Assembly (NCBI GenBank): GCA_958295485.1
Contig: OY282354.1
Span: 2,166,068-2,230,067, forward strand
Length of the DNA stretch: 64,000 bases
Reading direction: 5' to 3'
From: an uncultured Gammaproteobacteria bacterium
GTDB taxonomy: Bacteria; Pseudomonadota; Gammaproteobacteria; Eutrophobiales; Eutrophobiaceae
Shown: positions 47,735 to 56,333 of the stretch, one piece after another
Layout of the letters: every line of letters begins with the position of its first letter
Numbering within the stretch: position 1 is the first letter of the stretch
Made by a program: the position numbers and the translations under genes
The notes under the pieces: model-generated
What the model saw: only the letters and a program-made list of their open reading frames with translations
Databases searched by the model: none
Told to the model about the DNA's origin: nothing

Positions 47735-47830
47735 ACTTCCCCCTTTTTTATTTATTTCAGGCGCCCACTCCGGCTGCGCCGACGCCCTCCGCCAGGCGCC
47801 AGAACAACAAACGCGCATAAACAGGCCAAG

Positions 47831-48061
47831 TCAAGATTCGACCCCTTTACACCAGCGCATATTCAGCTTTCTTTTGTGCGCCGCGCAGTCACGCAAGTAA
47901 AGATTAATAAGAGTTTGATAAGGAATGCCCGATTCTTCTGAAAGGGCTTTAAAATACTCGACAGAATCCCTGTCTAACCGCATGGTAACGGGTTGCTTCA
48001 GAAATTTCACATAAGGGTTTTTTTTGCCCTCCATTTTTGAAAATTCATAGTGTTTTCTCAT
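47831..48061 (-). CDS. BrnA/CopG-like antitoxin-family small protein (orphan; no toxin gene seen)
   Basis: 76 aa from the ATG at 48061. VTMRLDRDSVEYFKALSEESGIPYQTLINLYLRDC matches the motif I recall for that antitoxin family. Lies 31 nt downstream of the DUF1998-type gene on the same strand. Confidence 0.6.
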   Translation of the reverse strand: MRKHYEFSKMEGKKNPYVKFLKQPVTMRLDRDSVEYFKALSEESGIPYQTLINLYLRDCAAHKRKLNMRWCKGVES

Positions 48062-48092
48062 TTTCTGTAACTCCAACAGGTCTGTTCTATTG

Positions 48093-49913
48093 TTACAGAT
48101 ACTCCCTGATTTTCCTATCCAGGAATGAATTAAACCCCTCACAGGCATTTTCAGCGATTAATACACATGAATAACACGCCGCCAAATTCATTTCGCCAAC
48201 ACCCTGTCCCTTAGAATGGTAACAAATTGGATCAGACGCACAGTCTTTGGCTCGCTCTAAAGCGCAATCCAAAAGGTCGGCAAATTTATCAGGTTGAGCC
48301 TGAGATACCAAACCACCATAACTTCCTTCCATGCCACCCACCGTATAAATCAACGCTCCTTGCATATTCTTATTATCAACGAACAATCGCTCGCTCAACG
48401 AAACCGTTGGATAGCCACAAAAAAATTCCAACTCTTTCATCAAAAAATGACAAAGAGTATGGACAAAAATATATCGTCCCAAATGCTGATAACCGGAAAA
48501 ACGATCATGAAACAAAGGAGACTTACCAACTTTCTTATAAATCCCTTCTAATAAGCTCCTGGTTTTTTCTATGTATTTTTGAATTACATCTGAGCTAATT
48601 GTGAAAAATATCCCTTCACCATAATTTTCTGCTCCCAATAAATATTCAGTATTTTTTGCTTGTGATGAGGTATATCGAGGTTTGATTTGATCGGAGTCAC
48701 CTCCCAAAAACAAATCAATGTCAATCGGTTGCTGGCGAGTATAGCCGGTTTGCACGGTAGTTATTTTAAGCCGGGAAACTGCTACCAGCTTCTCAATTCC
48801 TGATAAGCTTAACGGCGGCTGGTGTTTAAATATAAATTCATTATGTATCGACCGCTCTTTTTGTAACAGATACTCATATTCTTGTTTGCGGAATTCCGCC
48901 TCTCTCTCAAAAGGTGTCTTTGCATTGCTACTGTTTATGTACTGTTTAATATCCTCTTTGCTATATTTGCCCTCCAATTCATCAAACATGTGGTCTATGG
49001 TTTTTCCCCTTTCTCCCCAACGATCTATTTTTCTTTGGTCCGCATCTGAAATATTACTCTCATGTGGTAAATACAGACTGCGAACCAGAAGGGGGTAATA
49101 GACGCTGTTACTTGAACGAACGACTGTCTTATACCTGTGCTTGCTGTCTCCTGATGAAAAAGTTAAACCAAATAAGCCAGAAAGAGTTGCACGTTTCCAA
49201 CAAGATGCACAGCGAATACTAATGCCTGCTAAATCCTCAAAATCACCTTGCCTATAGTTCAAATCGGGATTGCCACAACATCGGTTCCAATTGGCTAAAT
49301 CAATGGCGCCATCCTGCTCGTCTCTGGATTGCTCTTTAAAGGTAATCCAACGGTCCCAAGGCACATCCCTGATTTTTCCATCAGAGCTAATCATAATGAA
49401 GCGGACCTGTGTTAATTCATAATATTTTTTCCTTTTTTTATCTTGGGATGCTTTGGAATAACAGTGATAACATTTGGGTGGTATAAATAGCCCGCGCGCG
49501 CTATTGGCTTTCCCGGGCCCATATTGGGCAATAGCATCTTTCCAACCTTTTAACCATTGCTGCATCTTTTTGAAGCTGTGGCAATTACTACAAAACATCC
49601 ACTCAGGAAAATACTGGGCGCTTGCAACTGCCTCTGGGTCGGCAGGTTTGGAGTTGTAGCCGAAATCGTTAGCGGTGTTGACTGGCGCACTAACCAACAT
49701 TTTTAATTTCGGAAATCCCTTTTCACTACGCAATCGTTTAATCAAACGATTGTCTGAAATTTGGTATTTTTCATCATCTTTCTTCTTTTCAATATAACGC
49801 CACCTTTCAAGGTTGTTTATTTTTACTACTCCGTCAACACCTTCAACCAACGCCCCCACGCCGGCAAATGCCCCCACCATTTTTCGGCTGGGTATTTCCA
49901 ACCATTTACTCAT
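48093..49913 (-). CDS. DUF1998-type zinc-binding protein, DrmB-like
   Basis: 606 aa. N-terminal PSRKMVGAFAGVGALVEG motif. CxxC...CxxC ribbon (C108/C111/C148/C151; nt 49461..49592). C-terminal cluster C-x5-C-x15-C-x2-C-x7-C (nt 48141..48242). Its ATG overlaps the helicase stop (ATGA). Confidence 0.75.
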   Translation of the reverse strand: MSKWLEIPSRKMVGAFAGVGALVEGVDGVVKINNLERWRYIEKKKDDEKYQISDNRLIKRLRSEKGFPKLKMLVSAPVNTANDFGYNSKPADPEAVASAQYFPEWMFCSNCHSFKKMQQWLKGWKDAIAQYGPGKANSARGLFIPPKCYHCYSKASQDKKRKKYYELTQVRFIMISSDGKIRDVPWDRWITFKEQSRDEQDGAIDLANWNRCCGNPDLNYRQGDFEDLAGISIRCASCWKRATLSGLFGLTFSSGDSKHRYKTVVRSSNSVYYPLLVRSLYLPHESNISDADQRKIDRWGERGKTIDHMFDELEGKYSKEDIKQYINSSNAKTPFEREAEFRKQEYEYLLQKERSIHNEFIFKHQPPLSLSGIEKLVAVSRLKITTVQTGYTRQQPIDIDLFLGGDSDQIKPRYTSSQAKNTEYLLGAENYGEGIFFTISSDVIQKYIEKTRSLLEGIYKKVGKSPLFHDRFSGYQHLGRYIFVHTLCHFLMKELEFFCGYPTVSLSERLFVDNKNMQGALIYTVGGMEGSYGGLVSQAQPDKFADLLDCALERAKDCASDPICYHSKGQGVGEMNLAACYSCVLIAENACEGFNSFLDRKIREYL

Positions 49914-52900
49914 TGTTCACTGCACCCGTCTTGGGCATTCGGTATCTGGACTTGAATAAAACTACTACTGTCTATATCCCGCATGGACTGCATCACTTTC
50001 CATTTCTTGTCTTCCTCGGATACTTGAGACGTCGGCTTCTTCAGCAATGCGCTCGTCTTCCCATCATAGGTTTCATAAGGATTTTCTTTGCTAATTTTTC
50101 CATGCCAATCTTGCGCCAATTCATCCAACTTTTTACAACAATATTCAAATATTTCAGGCTGATTAAATCGGCCTCTAATCACTTGTTTTAAATTCAGCCC
50201 ATGCTTGCGCTTATCGAAATCTTTTATACTCTCATTTTTGTAAAGCCCTTCCTTGTGTCGCACATAAGTGATAAACATACTGGCGATCATCTTATCAATA
50301 GTATTGGCAGTGAAAGGGGTCAAACTGAGCGGCTCAACCTGCTTGTACAGTGATTGATGGAATGATATAAAATGCTCAAAACAAGATTTGTCACGAGCTC
50401 GATTTGAGTCAAAAAAACTAATCACCAATCCTTTATCCTTCCTGCCTATTCGCGAGGAAGCCTGGATATACTCAGCGGTGTTACGCGGCATTCCGTTAAC
50501 CAGCATGATATTAAGACGAGAAATGTCAATGCCTACTGACAGCATATTGGTTGCCAAAACCAAATCAACCACACCCTTTGCTGTGTATTTATAGCTTTCT
50601 GGATGAGTTTCTAAACTAAAAGCTTTTTCCAATTTGCTCAAAGATTGTTTTATTTTGCTGCTTTCAATTCGTGAAGTTAGTTCCTCCGTTCTATTTTTCA
50701 GGCCATAAAAATTAAACCGGTGTTCGCTTAACCCCAGACTTGCCTGTTTTTGTCTAACAGTAGTCATAATTTCATCACCCACCTTGTTCGACATCCTGCC
50801 AACATCTCTAAGGCTGTTGTAATAGGAAACCAATGTCCAATACGGGGATGTTTTATCCTCATTCTCTCCACATTCCAGATGTGTTCGCAGACGAGCAATA
50901 AAAAGAGCAGATAATAATTGCACTTGGCTATCTATGCCCGTTTTCCCCGTTGGCATAAACCCTAAATAGCAGCGATTACTTTCTTCACCTTGTTTGGCAA
51001 AAAAACTGTCCTCATAACTTAATCCAGGTGGTGGGAAAACATAAGATTGCCTGTTGCTGTAGAGGTTTTTGATTTGTTGGTCAGTATTGCGAGTAGTTGC
51101 CGTGGATGCAATAATTTTTGGTTTCTTGCCTTCTTTACTACAAAGGTCCTCAACCACTGTTTCAAAGAGGCCCGAAATAGAGCCTAATGGCCCTGACAAA
51201 AGATGAAGCTCATCCTGAATGACTAAATCGGGCGGTAGCCCCCCTTCTTGCAAACTATTAAAAAATCTGTGACCCTTCTCCCTCCAGCCCAGCATGGCAA
51301 ACTTGTCGACTGTTGCAAACAATAATGAGGGGGGATAGTTGTATAAAGCATCATCAACAACGGATATTGGCAAGCCTGCTCCATTATGAAAATGACATTT
51401 TTCATTCAGGCATTTGATGACCATTCTTTTCTGTCCGTCCCTGACATCAAAGGCATGAGTATAATTGCCTGATTTGTTGCCAATTAGCGGGCTATTACAC
51501 CAGGGACATTTATCAATTTGAAATCGAGTTGCCCGTTCCCCGTTTTCTCTAATTTTTTCAGTTATTTTTTTTGCATCTTCTAATGTGTTGGGCGTGGAAG
51601 ATTGTCCGATCCACAAACCGGCCGAAATCGGATCTTTCTTTAATTCACCAACAAAATTCAACCTTAAATATTCCAATACCGTAATAAGTCTGCTTGTTCT
51701 TTCAAACTGCTGGGCCGTCAGCAACCTGAGGGTATATCGCATGATGACTGAAACACCTTGATAGTTGTCATTATTCATCCTGCGCCACAATATGGTTAGC
51801 GTCGCAACAGCCAAATATGCTTCTGTCTTACCCCCACCAGTGGGAAACCAGATTAAGTCCACCCCTTCATTACGATACTCTGATTCAGGATTGATAACAC
51901 TCTCAAGACTTAGCAACAAGAACGCCAATTGAAATGGACGATAATGATATTTCTTTAATTGAGCTTCGGGAATCGGACAGCTATCCGTTAAATTCGTATT
52001 TTTTTGTATCAGCGAATAACCATTTTCCTCATTCAAGGCAAACTGTAGCAGCATTGCCGTGTTGGTGAACTGAAATGCCCTAAACAGATCTCTATTTGTT
52101 TTTATTAATTCCACGCCTTCATTTAATCGCGTGAGGGTGGTATCCAACTGATCAAAAATTTGTTTTGCTTCTTTTCCCCCAGCGTCACTGGACTTTTTCT
52201 GCTCAGCTATCCAGTCAGCATACTTCCCGACAAATTGTTCAATTCGACAGACAGTTTCTGCTTGAGAATCCCCCCATATAGACAAGTCGGAAAGAGCGAT
52301 ATTTTCTCCTTTCGTGGTAAGCCCTTTTAGCTCGTATATGGGCAGGTAACTTGTTTTTATCCAGCCTGGATGCCCATTATTTTCATCCCAGACCGCGCTA
52401 CAATTATGCCCGATGGCAAAATGCTTTTGCCCTCTATATAAAAACTCCAATTGTTTTTGTTCATCATCACCTTGAAATGAGCGATTGCGCTTATAATTCT
52501 GTAACTTCCCGGATTGAATGGCAATTTCTGATTGAAACAGGCAGGAGCGATTAATCTCTTCGTTCGTCGAAGAAAACCCTCTCTCTTTGAGGGTGCTGAA
52601 ACAGTTGACCAACTGTAATTTTATATATTGCTTCCCATCTTCCTGGAATTTTTTGATCGTATAACCGGCATTTTCGAATTTTGAAAATCTCCTGGGATTG
52701 ATAATCTCTTGCCCATCAACAGCTACTTGCTCAACGATTTTATAAAATTTCCGCTTCCATATTGGCCTAATTAGTTTTCTGAAAACATCTCCGGCTCGTT
52801 TTGGCTCTTTAGCATCCTTCGGCAACTTTTTAACCCAGTCATCAAAATCCTTATATGCTCTGGATTTCACCTTTGTTTCTTTCAGTTCCCGGGTTAGAGA

Positions 52901-53473
52901 AAGGTAACCATGATTATCTTCAGTCGGTTCAAATTTCAACAAATCTTTCAGCGGAAATCCGTATTTGTCATCACAGAGAGTTAGATAGGTAGATTTCGTC
53001 GTTTTCAGGCGTATATCATCTGCGTTGAATTTGTCGCTATAACAAGCAAATGAGAAAGTAGCGTTTATGTATTTTTCCGATTTATCCACACAAAAACTGA
53101 TACCCATATCAGAGGGATAGAAGTGGGAAGTAGTATCCGTATAAAAATCTTCTTTTAACTGCTCTGTTGGCTTTTCCTCACTTTCAATATCCTGCCCCCC
53201 AGAGAGATCATCGCTTTCTTCATCGTCCAATTCAGGAACCTTATTTTCACTGTCATCTATCGCTGATTCACTATCATCCCTATCCCTGGCGCCATGGTTT
53301 TCATCTTTTTTCCTGGGATAAAGCACACCAGTGTAATAACGCTTCAGTGGAAAACCAGATATAAGCTCCTCAGCAATATTTTCATCATCAAAAATATCTG
53401 AGCCCGGACCCAGCAACAACTCGCGAATGGTCTTCTCAAAAATTTTAATAGCTGGCTGTGCCATCTTCTTCAT
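49910..53473 (-). CDS. Large SF2 (DExH) helicase, DrmA-like
   Basis: 1187 aa. Motif I FPTGGGKTEAY (nt 51821..51844), motif II DELH (51203..51214), motif VI QASSRIGR (50441..50464). Non-helicase N-terminus of ~540 aa with an acidic tract. Cys4 insertion between motifs I and II. Confidence 0.8.
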   Translation of the reverse strand: MKKMAQPAIKIFEKTIRELLLGPGSDIFDDENIAEELISGFPLKRYYTGVLYPRKKDENHGARDRDDSESAIDDSENKVPELDDEESDDLSGGQDIESEEKPTEQLKEDFYTDTTSHFYPSDMGISFCVDKSEKYINATFSFACYSDKFNADDIRLKTTKSTYLTLCDDKYGFPLKDLLKFEPTEDNHGYLSLTRELKETKVKSRAYKDFDDWVKKLPKDAKEPKRAGDVFRKLIRPIWKRKFYKIVEQVAVDGQEIINPRRFSKFENAGYTIKKFQEDGKQYIKLQLVNCFSTLKERGFSSTNEEINRSCLFQSEIAIQSGKLQNYKRNRSFQGDDEQKQLEFLYRGQKHFAIGHNCSAVWDENNGHPGWIKTSYLPIYELKGLTTKGENIALSDLSIWGDSQAETVCRIEQFVGKYADWIAEQKKSSDAGGKEAKQIFDQLDTTLTRLNEGVELIKTNRDLFRAFQFTNTAMLLQFALNEENGYSLIQKNTNLTDSCPIPEAQLKKYHYRPFQLAFLLLSLESVINPESEYRNEGVDLIWFPTGGGKTEAYLAVATLTILWRRMNNDNYQGVSVIMRYTLRLLTAQQFERTSRLITVLEYLRLNFVGELKKDPISAGLWIGQSSTPNTLEDAKKITEKIRENGERATRFQIDKCPWCNSPLIGNKSGNYTHAFDVRDGQKRMVIKCLNEKCHFHNGAGLPISVVDDALYNYPPSLLFATVDKFAMLGWREKGHRFFNSLQEGGLPPDLVIQDELHLLSGPLGSISGLFETVVEDLCSKEGKKPKIIASTATTRNTDQQIKNLYSNRQSYVFPPPGLSYEDSFFAKQGEESNRCYLGFMPTGKTGIDSQVQLLSALFIARLRTHLECGENEDKTSPYWTLVSYYNSLRDVGRMSNKVGDEIMTTVRQKQASLGLSEHRFNFYGLKNRTEELTSRIESSKIKQSLSKLEKAFSLETHPESYKYTAKGVVDLVLATNMLSVGIDISRLNIMLVNGMPRNTAEYIQASSRIGRKDKGLVISFFDSNRARDKSCFEHFISFHQSLYKQVEPLSLTPFTANTIDKMIASMFITYVRHKEGLYKNESIKDFDKRKHGLNLKQVIRGRFNQPEIFEYCCKKLDELAQDWHGKISKENPYETYDGKTSALLKKPTSQVSEEDKKWKVMQSMRDIDSSSFIQVQIPNAQDGCSEQ

Positions 53474-53532
53474 TCTTTGCAGTTGTAATTTAATCTATTA
53501 AAAGAAAGGAAGGCAGATTTATCGAAATATTC

Positions 53533-55923
53533 TCATACGGTTGTAATACTTTGAATTTCTCGGCATGGCATATTGCTATCAGATATAATTTCCACTGTTT
53601 CATCATCAAACTTTTCCAGGATCGGGCCTTTTACTTCGTTTAGCACATAGTCGGTAATTTCATCGCTCAGGTCTCTTCCCAGCGCAACCATAATACTGTT
53701 GTAGTTTCTTTTACTCTTAATCACTTGATTGCATTGATCAGGATCATCCTTGAAAAGAAATCTGAACACCTCGTCATTCCTTGGGAATTTTGTAGAATCT
53801 GTTTCTTCCCATTTCAATACGGTACTGTTCCTTACCCCGAAATGCTCATGCTGTTCATCAATCTTTCTCTGAAGTAACTCTCTACGTGCTATCACAGGAT
53901 GATCATAGAGGAGTGATAGCAGGGGGTCGTCATCAGAAACTTCAGTATTCAAATATATGGTTAGGGCTTCCTTCCATTGTCTTGAACATGTTTGAATCTG
54001 ATTAAACGCACCACTATCATTCGCTTCACTCGCAACCTGAAACAACAGGCCTTCATGTTGGTTCTCATAAATTCTTATTCGGTCACCTGTTGTTAAATCC
54101 CCCACTTTGTACTTTTTTAAACCTTCTCCATCTGATACCAAAAGTACTGATTTACTCGAGGGTAAAACATTCTCACTTGCATCTGTAAAGACAATCTTTT
54201 TTTCGATACTATCTTGCCATTCAGGAGCATATCCACCAGGAGTTTCACTCTCCCCTGTTTCTCCAAAGATACGTATAATTACCTCACCAGGCGTTTCCGC
54301 AGGCTCTCCGTCGATTGGAAAATCTACACTTGTCAGACTTTTTCTGTCAGAAGACCCAAGCTCTTTTATCAGGTCATTCTCAAACTTTGCTTTATCATGG
54401 TCAAATTGCTTACATTCATCGGTATATAGCAACCATTTGAAAGGATGAGGCTGATGGCTAAATGCCTCGAATTGTTTGTCTCTTATCTCCATGACTGTTA
54501 TCTCTGACCCTTGCTTTAGCTCCTTTATACCAGCTTCCGTTATGGCCTGCACCCTATCCAGGTTCAGACCCCTTATATCCTCCTCCCAGATGTATTTGGT
54601 CTGGTGTTTCGGTATGAGCAAATAGGTATCTCTGAGTGTGCGAAGGGCATGGGATTTTTTATTATTCATATACCTTATTTGCCCAATCATCTCATTAAAT
54701 GCCTCAACTATTTGTTCATTCGCCGTTGTCGGGTCACCACCAAAATCTGAAAAGGCTTCTTCCAGGATAGTTTTTGCTGCTTTTCTAAACTTCTCCTGTA
54801 AATCATCAGCACTGTTCACTAATCGACTGTTTTCTGAAGGAGGAACAAGCGCATAGCAATATCTGATATAGGGTAGTAGTCTTCGCTGAATGCTTATTCC
54901 ATTTTGTTCTTCGACGGATTTTAATAAATCAATAAACTTGGTTTGAGCATCCTGCAAATCTTCATGTTCAATTTCTTGACATGTCTGCTCACTCGGTTTG
55001 TCATTCCTCAAGTGTTGTAGCTCAAGTGGCATCCATTGCCATCTCAACACCGAATCAACCTTTGGTTTTTCCCGTCCAACCGAGATTACACGCTTAACCT
55101 GACCCCTATTGATGTCATCCTGGATTTGTTCATCGACTGCTTTATTAAGAAACACCACGGTATCCAACTTGATACCTTCATCAAAGACATACTGTTTAAT
55201 ATCCTCATAAGAGGGCGCTAAATAAAACAAGTTGTCATCTGTCTCCAAATTTCGAGAAAAGTCACCGTTTCTGTCTATATAGATGTAGGGATAGGCCCTC
55301 CTATCGGTCTTGTTAAAACAGCCCTCGAAAGTATGCTTGGTAGCCACAATGGCATATTTACCTGGGAAAAAAGAAATATTTACCTTACGCCCAATTACTT
55401 CTTTCAAAAAGGCCAGCATATACTGAAATGTATTCCGGTTAGTTACATTGGCATCGGCATACAGCTGGGTATATTCTTTGTTTAAATCTTCGAGAACCAC
55501 GTAGCGTGATGAACCAGCATTTTTACGACTGAGACATTCAAGTTTTATAAATTCCCCGCCGTATTCAGGCATATCATGGTGGGGGTCAATGACCTTATAT
55601 GTTTCCCTGCCTTTTTTGTATTTATCCCCCTCTTGAGGATATTGCTCACTGCTCAGACGGTAATTAAACTCCAAAAAATGAATTGCCAGCGCAAAAACGA
55701 TAGGTTCATAGAGACATTCCACAATTGATTGATCAACACTAATCCAGAGATTCTTATCATCCTGATCGTCTCCCAGTACTTTCAAAACCAAAAAGCCATT
55801 CAATGCCTCAAATTTATCAAATCGTTTTTTTACTATAGGTTGATTCTGCTCTTCTTCCGTAAAAGCAAGAAAAAAACGTTTAAGATATTCGACTACTGGC
55901 TGTTTTATATCTTCGTTGGCCAT
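53533..55923 (-). CDS. Hypothetical 796-aa protein, first gene of the helicase/DUF1998 cluster
   Basis: Long uninterrupted ORF in AT-rich DNA, 59 nt upstream of the helicase gene on the same strand. No P-loop, nuclease or methyltransferase motif recognised. Its position and size resemble DrmE of class 2 DISARM (positional inference only). Confidence 0.8.
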   Translation of the reverse strand: MANEDIKQPVVEYLKRFFLAFTEEEQNQPIVKKRFDKFEALNGFLVLKVLGDDQDDKNLWISVDQSIVECLYEPIVFALAIHFLEFNYRLSSEQYPQEGDKYKKGRETYKVIDPHHDMPEYGGEFIKLECLSRKNAGSSRYVVLEDLNKEYTQLYADANVTNRNTFQYMLAFLKEVIGRKVNISFFPGKYAIVATKHTFEGCFNKTDRRAYPYIYIDRNGDFSRNLETDDNLFYLAPSYEDIKQYVFDEGIKLDTVVFLNKAVDEQIQDDINRGQVKRVISVGREKPKVDSVLRWQWMPLELQHLRNDKPSEQTCQEIEHEDLQDAQTKFIDLLKSVEEQNGISIQRRLLPYIRYCYALVPPSENSRLVNSADDLQEKFRKAAKTILEEAFSDFGGDPTTANEQIVEAFNEMIGQIRYMNNKKSHALRTLRDTYLLIPKHQTKYIWEEDIRGLNLDRVQAITEAGIKELKQGSEITVMEIRDKQFEAFSHQPHPFKWLLYTDECKQFDHDKAKFENDLIKELGSSDRKSLTSVDFPIDGEPAETPGEVIIRIFGETGESETPGGYAPEWQDSIEKKIVFTDASENVLPSSKSVLLVSDGEGLKKYKVGDLTTGDRIRIYENQHEGLLFQVASEANDSGAFNQIQTCSRQWKEALTIYLNTEVSDDDPLLSLLYDHPVIARRELLQRKIDEQHEHFGVRNSTVLKWEETDSTKFPRNDEVFRFLFKDDPDQCNQVIKSKRNYNSIMVALGRDLSDEITDYVLNEVKGPILEKFDDETVEIISDSNMPCREIQSITTV

Positions 55924-56333
55924 TGTCAGTTTGGTAAATAGTCAAAGTCGGAATAGGCGGCAGGGGTTATCGATGATCTGATCAGACCACTCCAGCCCGA
56001 TTAACGCCCGGGGATGAGAATATAATACCTTTAGAAAAGTTATCGCAGATTTCACGGTGTCTGATCTTGAGGTCAACAAAGATAATTGTTCTCATTATAT
56101 TCCAGACTGGGAACTAGTCAAAATGTTGTGAAAATTCAAATAGATGCAGATGAAGGATGTGTGGACATGCAAAGACTGTCTGAAAGCAATGCATGAAATG
56201 ATCCCTTAAGTATGTGTCAGCCACAAATAGCCTACAAGGTTTTGACCTTGGCATGATTATTGAGTAGAATTAATGTATCGAATGACAGGGGCCATCCCCC
56301 CCGTAAGCGGTTGAGAGACCTGGTTGAAAAATC

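Follow-up and report, generated by a model that had tools for sequence, protein, structure and literature searches.

The window, a stretch of 64,000 nucleotides, contains a low-GC insertion of 8.56 kb (47746..56304) that holds the whole drmE–drmA–drmB cassette described here. The G+C content of the insertion is 0.40, compared with approximately 0.51 for its surroundings, and it is bordered by a gene for an MFS transporter on one side and by moaA on the other. In two genomes of the same genus, only 160 to 190 bp lie between these two flanks, and 22 genomes of this genus have no DrmE. Base composition and the comparison of the flanks show that this 8.6-kb island was acquired horizontally. The ends of the island lack direct repeats of at least 8 nt, and the island contains no Rfam family, integrase, or tRNA.

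The lead gene of the cassette (53533..55923, reverse strand) is a drmE-like gene encoding a protein of 796 residues, referred to as P0001. It is followed on the same strand by drmA (49910..53473), encoding a DrmA of the short, class 2 type (P0002, 1187 residues), and by drmB (48093..49913), encoding its DUF1998/MZB zinc-binding partner (P0003, 606 residues); the start of drmB and the end of drmA overlap by 4 nt. P0002 matches the PADLOC model for DrmA (E = 2.9e-192) and the Pfam families Helicase_C and DEAD, and it scores 817.6 bits against NCBIfam DISARM_DrmAS, which is below the cut-off of 950. Judging from the motifs GGGKT and DELH, both of which are kept, P0002 looks like an active SF2 helicase. 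P0003 scores 284.3 bits against NCBIfam DrmB_fam (cut-off 240) and also matches PADLOC DrmB (E = 9.6e-52) and Pfam MZB. The original prediction had placed DrmA/DrmB-like genes beside the 796-residue ORF, and the PADLOC match for DrmA and the above-cut-off score for DrmB bear this out. At the 3′ end of the island, a small gene of the BrnA/CopG ribbon–helix–helix type (47831..48061, reverse strand; Pfam BrnA_antitoxin, E = 6.4e-9) has no match among the PADLOC models and is not conserved beside other drmEAB cassettes, where the fourth genes differ. The best sigma-70-like promoter match (TTGACT-16-TATAAT, 11/12; 56094..56121, reverse strand) is situated approximately 170 nt upstream of the drmE ATG, within the island; this is a consensus match only, and such sites are, in total, no more numerous in the region than in shuffled sequences.

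According to the ORF listing, the boundaries of drmE are exactly 53533..55923, with an ATG start and 796 codons. At the G+C content of this stretch (39.9%), stop codons are expected at a frequency of 0.071 per codon, and the probability of 796 codons without a stop is therefore approximately 1e-25.5. The longest open run in the remaining five frames is 125 residues, and the longest ORF in 500 shuffles of the stretch is 133 residues. This chance probability, together with the 117 homologous clusters described later, upholds the earlier claim that the ORF is a real gene.

The 796 residues had also been said to contain no catalytic motif. A regular-expression scan of P0001 for Walker A/GK[ST], HxK(x)4D, HNH, and (D/N/S)PP(Y/F/W) gave no match, and a single DEQH (residue 689) and two loose PD..(D/E)xK matches are all at unconserved positions. 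Searches against Pfam (best E = 0.005, nothing above threshold), NCBIfam (no match at E ≤ 1), and the PADLOC models (no match) agree with the motif scans, as do searches of the PDB sequences with P0001 alone and then with a 91-sequence profile, which returned nothing meaningful. No profile match between P0001 and a characterized enzyme family, which had been named beforehand as one possible refutation, was found in these searches.

A word-indexed homolog search yielded one relative only, giving the misleading impression of an orphan, whereas an exhaustive HMMER search with P0001 yielded 117 related clusters, mainly of approximately 800 residues. NCBIfam DrmE_fam (NF038316) is matched by 19 of 53 full-length homologs (best E = 3.9e-45), and Pfam DrmE_C (PF24957) by 27 of the 53. 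Two relatives score above the curated DrmE_fam cut-off of 80 bits, namely P0016 (94.6 bits) and P0020 (87.8 bits), and BLASTP aligns P0001 end to end with both (E = 1e-59 with 26% identity over 794 residues, and E = 1e-49, respectively). When the clade of P0001 (A6) was compared by hhalign with a DrmE-annotated clade (A7), to which the "DrmE family protein [Maribacter luteus]" of NCBI belongs, the two alignments matched over 744 columns with a probability of 100% and an E-value of 3e-112.

P0001 and its proteobacterial clade (P0007, P0009–P0012) score under every current DrmE model. The close relatives P0009 and P0012 have no match to DrmE_fam, DrmE_C has no direct match in P0001, P0007, P0009, or P0012, and the identity of P0001 to annotated DrmE proteins is 23 to 27%. 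Since P0001 matches no DrmE model, its membership rests on transitive and profile–profile homology. DrmE_C spans residues 566–739 of P0144 and 576–746 of P0016, and both regions align to residues ~577–760 of P0001. Judged by these alignments, P0001 belongs to the DrmE family as a full-length protein that has diverged strongly. The original prediction had assigned the gene to the drmE position of a class 2-type operon by analogy; the BLASTP and hhalign results go further, in that the analogy of position is one of true homology along the full length. Like DrmE of class 2 DISARM (NF038316, PF24957, PADLOC PDLC02636), P0001 is approximately 800 residues long, is encoded directly upstream of drmA–drmB, and has no known catalytic motif; it differs in that its operon is without DrmC and DrmMII. 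The DrmE family reaches well past detection by Pfam, NCBIfam, and PADLOC, and cassettes like the one in the window are left unannotated or called incomplete DISARM. A practical gain of the present alignments is a profile able to reannotate drmE–drmA–drmB systems.

Class 2 DISARM has the gene order drmE–drmA–drmB–drmC–drmMII (PADLOC type II, PMC9252829). The cassette shares drmE, the short-type drmA, and drmB with this system, in the same order and on one strand, whereas the PLD nuclease and the C5 methyltransferase are missing from the island: in Pfam and PADLOC searches, no island gene matched PLD (DrmC) or a C5 methyltransferase (DrmMII). Matches to PF13091 in the genome are at 0.19, 0.53, 0.81, and 3.39 Mb, with the island at 2.21–2.22 Mb, and matches to PF00145, the family of the C5 enzymes, occur on the contig of the island, at 0.10 and 0.72 Mb, as well as on contig 4. 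The closest genes of the PLD and C5 methyltransferase families are at least 1.2 Mb from the island. Hence, of the proposed class 2 DISARM-type operon, the position and order of drmE, drmA, and drmB stand, and a complete class 2 system does not, because DrmC and DrmMII are absent; the five-gene class 2 rule of PADLOC would not call the drmEAB cassette.

ARMADA (Bell et al. 2025, bioRxiv 10.1101/2025.09.15.676423) is a DISARM-related defense system built on a YprA-family helicase, with a fused YprA helicase and Vsr nuclease, a BrxHII-like helicase, and a PglX-like methylase; DrmE is not mentioned in that paper. Neither of the ARMADA partners is present in the cassette, where searches of Pfam, PADLOC, and NCBIfam for BrxHII and PglX gave nothing beyond weak helicase-core matches. 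ARMADA, Druantia, and Dpd were considered as identities for the cassette and rejected: as in DISARM, the helicase is separate from the DUF1998 module, and by far the best matches of the helicase are DrmA models.

The gene order of the window was compared with that of 24 related loci. In all 24 loci, as in the window, drmA comes directly after drmE, and drmB is next wherever the contig extends far enough; in the related loci, drmE and drmA usually overlap by 11 to 29 nt. A homolog without a DrmA neighbor, which had been named beforehand as counterevidence to the proposed system, was sought in the 24 related loci, with zero exceptions to the rule. The PADLOC tally of 88 flanking ORFs was dominated by PDC-S05 models; the presence of DrmC and DrmMII in the flanks was judged by clustering, motif scans, and Pfam scans of adjacent ORFs. 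Flanking matches to HxK and DPPY motifs are really an Obg GTPase, a TPR histidine kinase, an aminotransferase, and the Mod subunit of a separate type III restriction–modification (R-M) system. No linked methyltransferase or PLD gene was found in the relatives examined. The three genes thus form, by gene order across the loci, a co-inherited drmE–drmA–drmB cassette without a linked methyltransferase or PLD nuclease.

One could argue that a full class 2 DISARM system has lost drmC and drmMII, that the cassette is its decaying remnant, and that the 796-residue gene is functionless. The absence of DrmC and DrmMII and the scores of P0001 and P0002 below curated DISARM cut-offs fit this idea. However, three of three ORFs are intact, DrmA has kept GGGKT and DELH, and approximately 20 distinct loci, spread over several phyla, have these three genes in the same layout with full-length ORFs and with neither methylase nor PLD. 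Decay is, accordingly, a very improbable explanation.

The structure of P0001 was predicted with AF2 from a 91-sequence alignment, which gave a confident model (pLDDT 90.6, pTM 0.81); prediction from a two-sequence alignment was useless (pLDDT 36). In a Foldseek search of this model against the PDB, 40 of 40 matches at E ≤ 1e-3 are SF2 helicases. The leading matches are LGP2, RIG-I, and MDA5 (E = 7e-7 to 1e-4, probability ~1.0), followed by Dicer, XPB, Hef, CSB, and Chd1/SNF2h, and a Foldseek search of BFVD gave the same picture. Global TM-scores are low (0.19–0.26 on the query and at most 0.36 on the target), which means that the likeness is one of domain folds and their order, not of rigid-body superposition.

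Regarding the SF2 hallmarks, two RecA-like lobes are seen in the predicted structure only, and Walker A and DExx are lacking. Two sporadic GK[ST] matches occur among the 117 family members and none in P0001, the family alignment has no conserved DExx, and hhalign detected no sequence relation between the DrmE profile and the DrmA alignment (probability 0.6%). The combination of a predicted SF2 fold and a family without Walker A or B entails that DrmE is a predicted pseudohelicase, for which canonical ATP hydrolysis would not be possible. Such a fold would also explain why no catalytic motif had been recognized in this protein. With a confident model of an SF2 helicase without ATPase motifs, there is a concrete, testable idea of what DrmE might do.

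The predicted architecture consists of an N-terminal domain, two RecA-like lobes with a helical insertion between them, and DrmE_C; the coordinates that follow are all on the reverse strand. Residues 1–185 (55369..55923) comprise a helical region followed by a small β-domain, which contains a conserved GDKYxK (residues 99–104); the β-part (residues 96–160) is among the most variable segments of the protein. The first RecA-like lobe (residues 186–320, approximate limits; 54964..55368) reads YAIVATKHTF at the position of motif I, with no P-loop, and VVFLNKA at the position of motif II, with no DExx, and its conserved residues are K189, P212, W295, W297, and E301. The insertion (residues 321–430; 54634..54963) is all-helical and fast-evolving, and the domain order and top Foldseek matches suggest that it may occupy the place that Hel2i has in RIG-I-like helicases and Hef. 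The second RecA-like lobe (residues 431–522, approximate limits; 54358..54633) has a long helix at its end. The C-terminal domain (residues 573–796; 53536..54207), a predicted small β-barrel plus helical bundle, probably corresponds to Pfam DrmE_C, by alignment to P0144 and P0016, and is the best-conserved part of DrmE, with GDxIRIYEN (613–621), W650, KFP (712–714), and YNSIMxALGRDLSDE (741–755).

The predicted layout of DrmE, in which two RecA-like lobes are accompanied by a helical insertion and a further C-terminal domain, resembles that of RIG-I-like receptors (RLRs), the helicase domain of Dicer, and Hef/FANCM, and the RLRs are sensors of nucleic-acid patterns. DrmE differs from these helicases in that it lacks Walker A and B and, on the model, would have no ATPase activity. 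Sequence identities are 6 to 13% and TM-scores are low. The likeness may reflect homology or convergence, and the ligand of RLRs is RNA, whereas that of DrmE is presumably DNA. Within DISARM, a parallel is DrmD of class 1 systems, an accessory protein whose gene also adjoins drmAB and which has an SF2 fold, as is predicted for DrmE; SNF2 remodelers are among the Foldseek matches of DrmE. However, DrmD, compared here by its description in bioRxiv 10.1101/2021.12.28.474362, is an active SNF2 ATPase (pfam00176), whereas DrmE is without ATPase motifs.

Since the cassette lacks a linked PLD or other nuclease gene, DrmE might be the missing effector enzyme, for example a nuclease with an unrecognized active site. 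No recognizable nuclease is encoded in the cassette, and a few polar residues are conserved across the family (K189, E301, D614, N621, S753, and E755). However, neither the sequence nor the predicted fold of DrmE matches a nuclease or another enzyme family, and aromatic or structural residues make up most of the invariant positions (W295, W297, Y619, W650, F713, P714, and G749). Moreover, DrmAB may work through translocation and blocking or may draw on a nuclease of the host (PMC9142583), and some relatives have a separate HNH gene downstream. We therefore consider an effector role for DrmE quite improbable.

DrmE has been genetically essential yet functionally blank since the description of DISARM in 2018. 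Structural work has indicated that DrmAB is autoinhibited and activated by DNA with a 5′ overhang, and left the role of DrmE open (PMC9142583). In the literature, we found no report of DNA binding, DrmAB contact, or defense activity for any DrmE protein as such. Taking the evidence together, we think it fairly probable that P0001, a diverged DrmE and predicted SF2 pseudohelicase, is a noncatalytic sensing or licensing partner of DrmAB in a methylase-less drmEAB cassette. A role in sensing or specificity, which the original prediction had put forward as a possibility, is suggested by the fold and by the rate at which DrmE evolves, the fastest of the three proteins: 45 of 45 locus pairs show lower conservation for DrmE than for DrmA and DrmB (34% versus 52% and 50%), and its divergence correlates with that of these partners (r = 0.96 and 0.92). 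Faster evolution could also simply reflect weaker constraint.

In the mechanism that we propose, DrmE would be a noncatalytic, nucleic-acid-binding pseudohelicase that attaches to the DrmAB motor by way of its conserved parts, the C-terminal and the RecA1-like. The faster-evolving N-terminal β-domain and helical insertion would recognize either a phage factor or some feature of the DNA that invades the cell. The autoinhibited DrmAB would thereby be recruited or licensed, and would then load on the foreign DNA and block its replication.

Alternatively, DrmE could be a structural or regulatory subunit of DrmAB only, i.e., a scaffold, a stabilizer, or a brake on autoimmunity, that does not sense foreign DNA. 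The RecA1-like lobe and the C-terminal domain are the best-conserved parts, as would fit a subunit of a constitutive complex, and tight co-inheritance and gene overlap with drmA point the same way; a methylase-less system also needs another safeguard against self-attack. However, a pure brake is not expected to be essential, and deletion of drmE abolishes defense by class 2 DISARM (Ofir 2018, as cited in bioRxiv 10.1101/2021.12.28.474362). The predicted retention of both SF2 lobes suggests that a nucleic-acid-binding surface is still in use, and the fast-evolving surface segments suggest an outward-facing role. A subunit role without sensing thus seems unlikely to us, and the sensing or licensing role is preferred.

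The absence of a methylase raises the issue of self-protection. In the Bacillus class 2 system that was tested, loss of the methylase was deleterious, as described in bioRxiv 10.1101/2021.12.28.474362, which entails that a methylase-less drmEAB system must either control itself differently or rely on a methylase gene outside the cassette; C5 methylase genes do occur at 0.10 and 0.72 Mb of the contig that carries the island. The occurrence of drmEAB without methylase or PLD across phyla suggests that the core of a class 2-type system can tell self from nonself without its own epigenetic mark, and this recurrence amounts to a natural experiment on self/nonself discrimination. Because there is no dedicated methylase, discrimination would rest on DNA structure and not on an epigenetic mark, for instance on free 5′ single-stranded ends, as shown for DrmAB from Serratia. 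A bolder reading, possible but in our view doubtful, is that drmE–drmA–drmB is a self-sufficient, methylation-independent immune system of three proteins, widespread in Pseudomonadota and Bacteroidota and overlooked by the annotation rules now in use, with DrmE as a dead RIG-I/Hef-like pattern-recognition subunit that reads DNA structure and licenses DrmAB. If true, prokaryotes would have, in a pseudoenzyme, their own counterpart of RLR-type sensing. The neighbors of drmEAB loci are other defense systems, namely type III and type I R-M, CBASS, GmrSD, and HNH.

The drmE-like gene lies on the minus strand at window 53533–55923, where its ATG start, 796 codons, and exact coordinates were reproduced. 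This stretch has a G+C content of 39.9%; at this base composition a stop is expected about once per 14 codons, giving a chance of about 1e-25.5 for 796 open codons. The longest open run in the remaining five frames is 125 aa, and shuffling the stretch (n = 500) never produced an open run of more than 133 aa. These figures, and the 117 homologous clusters described below, bear out the original prediction that the ORF is a real gene. The same prediction saw no recognizable catalytic motif in the 796 residues, and a motif scan of the protein (P0001) agrees, with Walker A, GK[ST], HxK(x)4D, HNH, and (D/N/S)PP(Y/F/W) all absent. The sole DExx-like string (DEQH, aa 689) and both of two loose PD..(D/E)xK matches fall at unconserved positions. 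There was likewise no profile match to a characterized enzyme family: no Pfam family scored above threshold, and NCBIfam, PADLOC, and PDB sequences gave no match.

A word-indexed search of 5.8 billion proteins returned one relative of P0001, P0007, which is 46% identical and occurs on two contigs, both with the X–DrmA–DrmB arrangement seen in the window. Exhaustive HMMER searching of 1.84 billion cluster representatives with a two-sequence profile yielded 117 clusters, 43 of them at E ≤ 1e-30, with most members being approximately 780 to 830 aa long. Pfam PF24957 (DrmE_C, equivalent to approximately residues 577–760 of P0001) matches 27 of the 53 full-length members, NCBIfam NF038316 (DrmE_fam, best E 3.9e-45) matches 19, and the PADLOC DrmE model gives just one, weak match. 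Two homologs, P0016 and P0020, score above the curated DrmE_fam cut-off with nearly the whole model covered, and their alignments to P0001 run from residue ~35 through the C terminus at 24 to 26% identity (E 1e-59 and 1e-49, respectively). The relatives of P0016 include the NCBI entry “DrmE family protein [Maribacter luteus]” and one UniRef-named DrmE-domain protein. When an alignment of the proteobacterial P0001 clade (A6) was compared with one of the annotated clade (A7), the two profiles matched over 744 columns with a probability of 100% and E 3e-112. This match settles the assignment of P0001 as a genuine, strongly diverged DrmE; the proposed correspondence to the DrmE position of class 2 DISARM operons thus goes beyond positional analogy to true full-length homology. 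P0001, P0007, and the other members of their clade (P0009–P0012) are below the detection limit of the Pfam, NCBIfam, and PADLOC models, and P0001 is placed in the DrmE family by homology and position, despite failing current HMM thresholds.

With each species represented by a single genome, a scan for related loci identified 14, distributed over Gammaproteobacteria MAGs (Ca. Spongiihabitans among them), Bacteroidota, and MAGs of Cloacimonadota, Melioribacteraceae, and Deltaproteobacteria. DrmA directly follows DrmE in 13 of these and is itself followed by DrmB (two contigs stop inside drmB); the fourteenth contig stops 143 nt past drmE. The order drmE–drmA(–drmB) is also found in L001/L002, in seven further loci reached via annotated DrmE proteins, and in L048, and the short contig L047 stops inside the N terminus of a DrmA homolog. 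Over all 24 related loci, ~20 of them distinct, the drmA-neighbor pattern holds without exception, and no homolog without a helicase neighbor was encountered. The drmE and drmA genes usually overlap by 11 to 29 nt in related loci; in the window they are separated by a 59-nt gap. The possibility that the cassette is a decaying remnant is the weakest of the alternative readings, because the intact three-gene layout recurs across phyla.

Of the three proteins, DrmE is the least conserved in all 45 pairwise comparisons of ten cassettes, with a mean identity of 34% versus 52% and 50% for DrmA and DrmB, respectively. Its divergence correlates tightly with that of DrmA and DrmB (r = 0.96 and 0.92), which indicates that drmE, drmA, and drmB travel as one unit. 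Clustering, motif scans, Pfam scans of 20 adjacent ORFs, and precomputed Pfam tables revealed no conserved fourth gene in the flanks of the related loci and no operon methyltransferase or PLD enzyme. The neighbors are housekeeping genes or other defense systems. In a Mariniphaga MAG, drmEAB is immediately preceded by a CBASS pair (L015:7655–9648, plus strand) made up of an oligonucleotide cyclase (PADLOC 1e-157) and a TIR-STING effector; its upstream neighbor is a type III R-M pair in L005 and two GmrSD genes in L047. Thus, drmEAB resides in defense islands. Other flanks carry a type I S subunit (L048), an HNH gene (L018), a conjugative coupling protein (L017), and Fic and HicA genes.

The structure of DrmE was predicted with confidence using AlphaFold2 with a 91-sequence alignment (pLDDT 90.6, pTM 0.81), and only aa 556–568 are disordered. 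A Foldseek search of the PDB gave 40 matches at E ≤ 1e-3, all 40 being SF2 helicases, led by LGP2, RIG-I, and MDA5 (E 7e-7 to 1e-4, probability ~1.0) and followed by an ancestral Dicer helicase, XPB, Hef, CSB, Chd1, and SNF2h; BFVD again returned SF2 and SNF2 helicases. Global TM-scores are low (0.19–0.26; up to 0.36 normalized on Hef) as expected for multi-domain proteins with free lobe orientation, and our claim therefore covers domain folds and their order, not close superposition. The predicted, approximate architecture, as read from the secondary structure, comprises an N-terminal helical region and small β domain (aa 1–185), a first RecA-like lobe (aa 186–320), an all-helical insertion (aa 321–430), a second RecA-like lobe (aa 431–522) followed by the disordered linker, and a C-terminal β-barrel and helical domain (aa 573–796). 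Conservation within DrmE is highest in the RecA1-like lobe and C-terminal domain and lowest in the N-terminal β domain and helical insertion.

In P0001, motif I would be expected after the first strand, where the sequence reads YAIVATKHTF, and motif II at the end of a strand, where it reads VVFLNKA; a conserved P-loop or DExx is absent throughout the DrmE family. Residues invariant across the family are predominantly aromatic or structural (W295, W297, Y619, W650, F713, P714, and G749), with a few polar ones (K189, E301, N621, S753, and E755). Read on the predicted model, this pattern is the signature of a pseudo-enzyme, which would explain the lack of a catalytic motif in P0001; a rival reading is that DrmE is a cryptic effector enzyme. 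ATPase-dead SF2 scaffolds keep the nucleic-acid backbone-holding surface of helicases, and for this reason we favor DrmE as a DNA-binding, noncatalytic partner of the DrmAB motor. DrmE would dock on DrmAB via its conserved parts, and would recruit or license the motor by recognizing invading DNA or a phage factor with its variable parts. Alternatively, DrmE could be a pure scaffold or brake. Class 2 DISARM defense is described as lost upon deletion of drmE, drmA, or drmB, with drmC being dispensable (Ofir 2018, as cited in bioRxiv 10.1101/2021.12.28.474362). In Serratia DrmAB, a loop occupying the DNA channel imposes autoinhibition, which 5'-overhang single-stranded DNA relieves; the role of DrmE was left open in that study (PMC9142583).

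Three genes follow drmE on the same strand in the window: drmA, drmB, and a small BrnA/CopG-like gene. DrmA (1187 aa, minus strand) is a helicase with intact GGGKT and DELH motifs that matches PADLOC DrmA at 2.9e-192 and scores 817.6 bits on the NCBIfam short-type DISARM DrmA model, below its equivalog cut-off of 950. DrmB (606 aa, minus strand) is a DUF1998/MZB protein that passes the NCBIfam DrmB_fam cut-off (284 versus 240 bits). There is no methyltransferase or PLD enzyme among the island genes; elsewhere, this genome encodes C5 methylases at 0.10 and 0.72 Mb, plus a fragment on a separate contig, and PLD-family proteins at 0.19–0.81 and 3.39 Mb, the island being at 2.21–2.22 Mb. Since no methylase is linked here or in any relative examined, self/non-self discrimination probably depends on DNA structure (ends, single strands), not on a dedicated epigenetic mark. 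The predicted pseudo-helicase fold and the naturally methylase-free cassette make the question of DrmE function directly testable.

PADLOC requires DrmA, B, C, E, and MII for class 2 DISARM (PMC9252829), and the window system does not have all five; this assignment was rejected, as DrmC and DrmMII are absent. ARMADA, BRIGADE, TALON, Druantia, and Dpd were also rejected, as the window cassette has separate helicase and DUF1998 modules and lacks all partner genes of those systems. Such a split is described as the hallmark of the DISARM branch (Bell et al. 2025, bioRxiv 10.1101/2025.09.15.676423), and DrmE is not mentioned in that census. Our literature search, which covered few subscription journals, found nothing on a DrmE fold or a drmE–drmA–drmB-only system. 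We conclude that P0001 adds a very diverged new member to a known, uncharacterized family and is encoded in an operon variant of drmEAB only that current rules miss.

The drmE gene lies within an ~8-kb block of 0.40 G+C (genome ~0.51) and is absent from all 22 same-genus genomes. An MFS-transporter gene and moaA are 160 to 190 bp apart in the two closest genomes examined, and 8.56 kb apart in the window (47746–56304). A third same-genus genome, of another species (G019), holds a different 3.7-kb cargo here, a TonB-dependent receptor and a 291-aa protein (L046:2544–6294), making the site a recurrent insertion point that is not defense-specific. We detected neither flanking direct repeats nor an integrase, tRNA, or Rfam element. 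The top promoter-like site (11 of 12 consensus matches) is inside the island, ~170 nt ahead of the drmE start codon.

Several minor features were also observed. DrmA has a strongly acidic low-complexity tract of ~50 residues near its N terminus (aa 57–109; window 53147–53305, minus strand), which could correspond to the trigger loop that occludes the DNA channel in Serratia DrmA. The BrnA/CopG-like ribbon-helix-helix gene at the 3' end of the island (47831–48061, minus strand; Pfam 6.4e-9) lacks a partner toxin, and nothing equivalent adjoins other drmEAB cassettes; it could be a regulator or a toxin–antitoxin leftover. Unannotated same-strand genes follow drmB in two Bacteroidota loci (L019:18389–19387 and L021:18296–19309; 332–337 aa) and in the closest relative (L001:18258–18914; 218 aa); they have no Pfam or PADLOC match and may be lineage-specific fourth components or effectors. 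The latter locus also has a truncated 395-aa drmE paralog (L001:7873–9060, plus strand) ~940 nt upstream of the full-length drmE. It keeps the N terminus and first RecA-like lobe (aa ~1–310; 48% identical to P0007) and a 30-aa piece of region aa 510–540, and could be what is left of a drmE 5' half that was replaced or recombined. Finally, the called start of the MFS transporter ORF is the ATG at 47818 (minus strand), and the same-genus homologs all start at an internal Met (MSGLLSKQ, ~47737); the extended N terminus (window 47737–47818, minus strand) is probably an artifact of the island abutting the gene.
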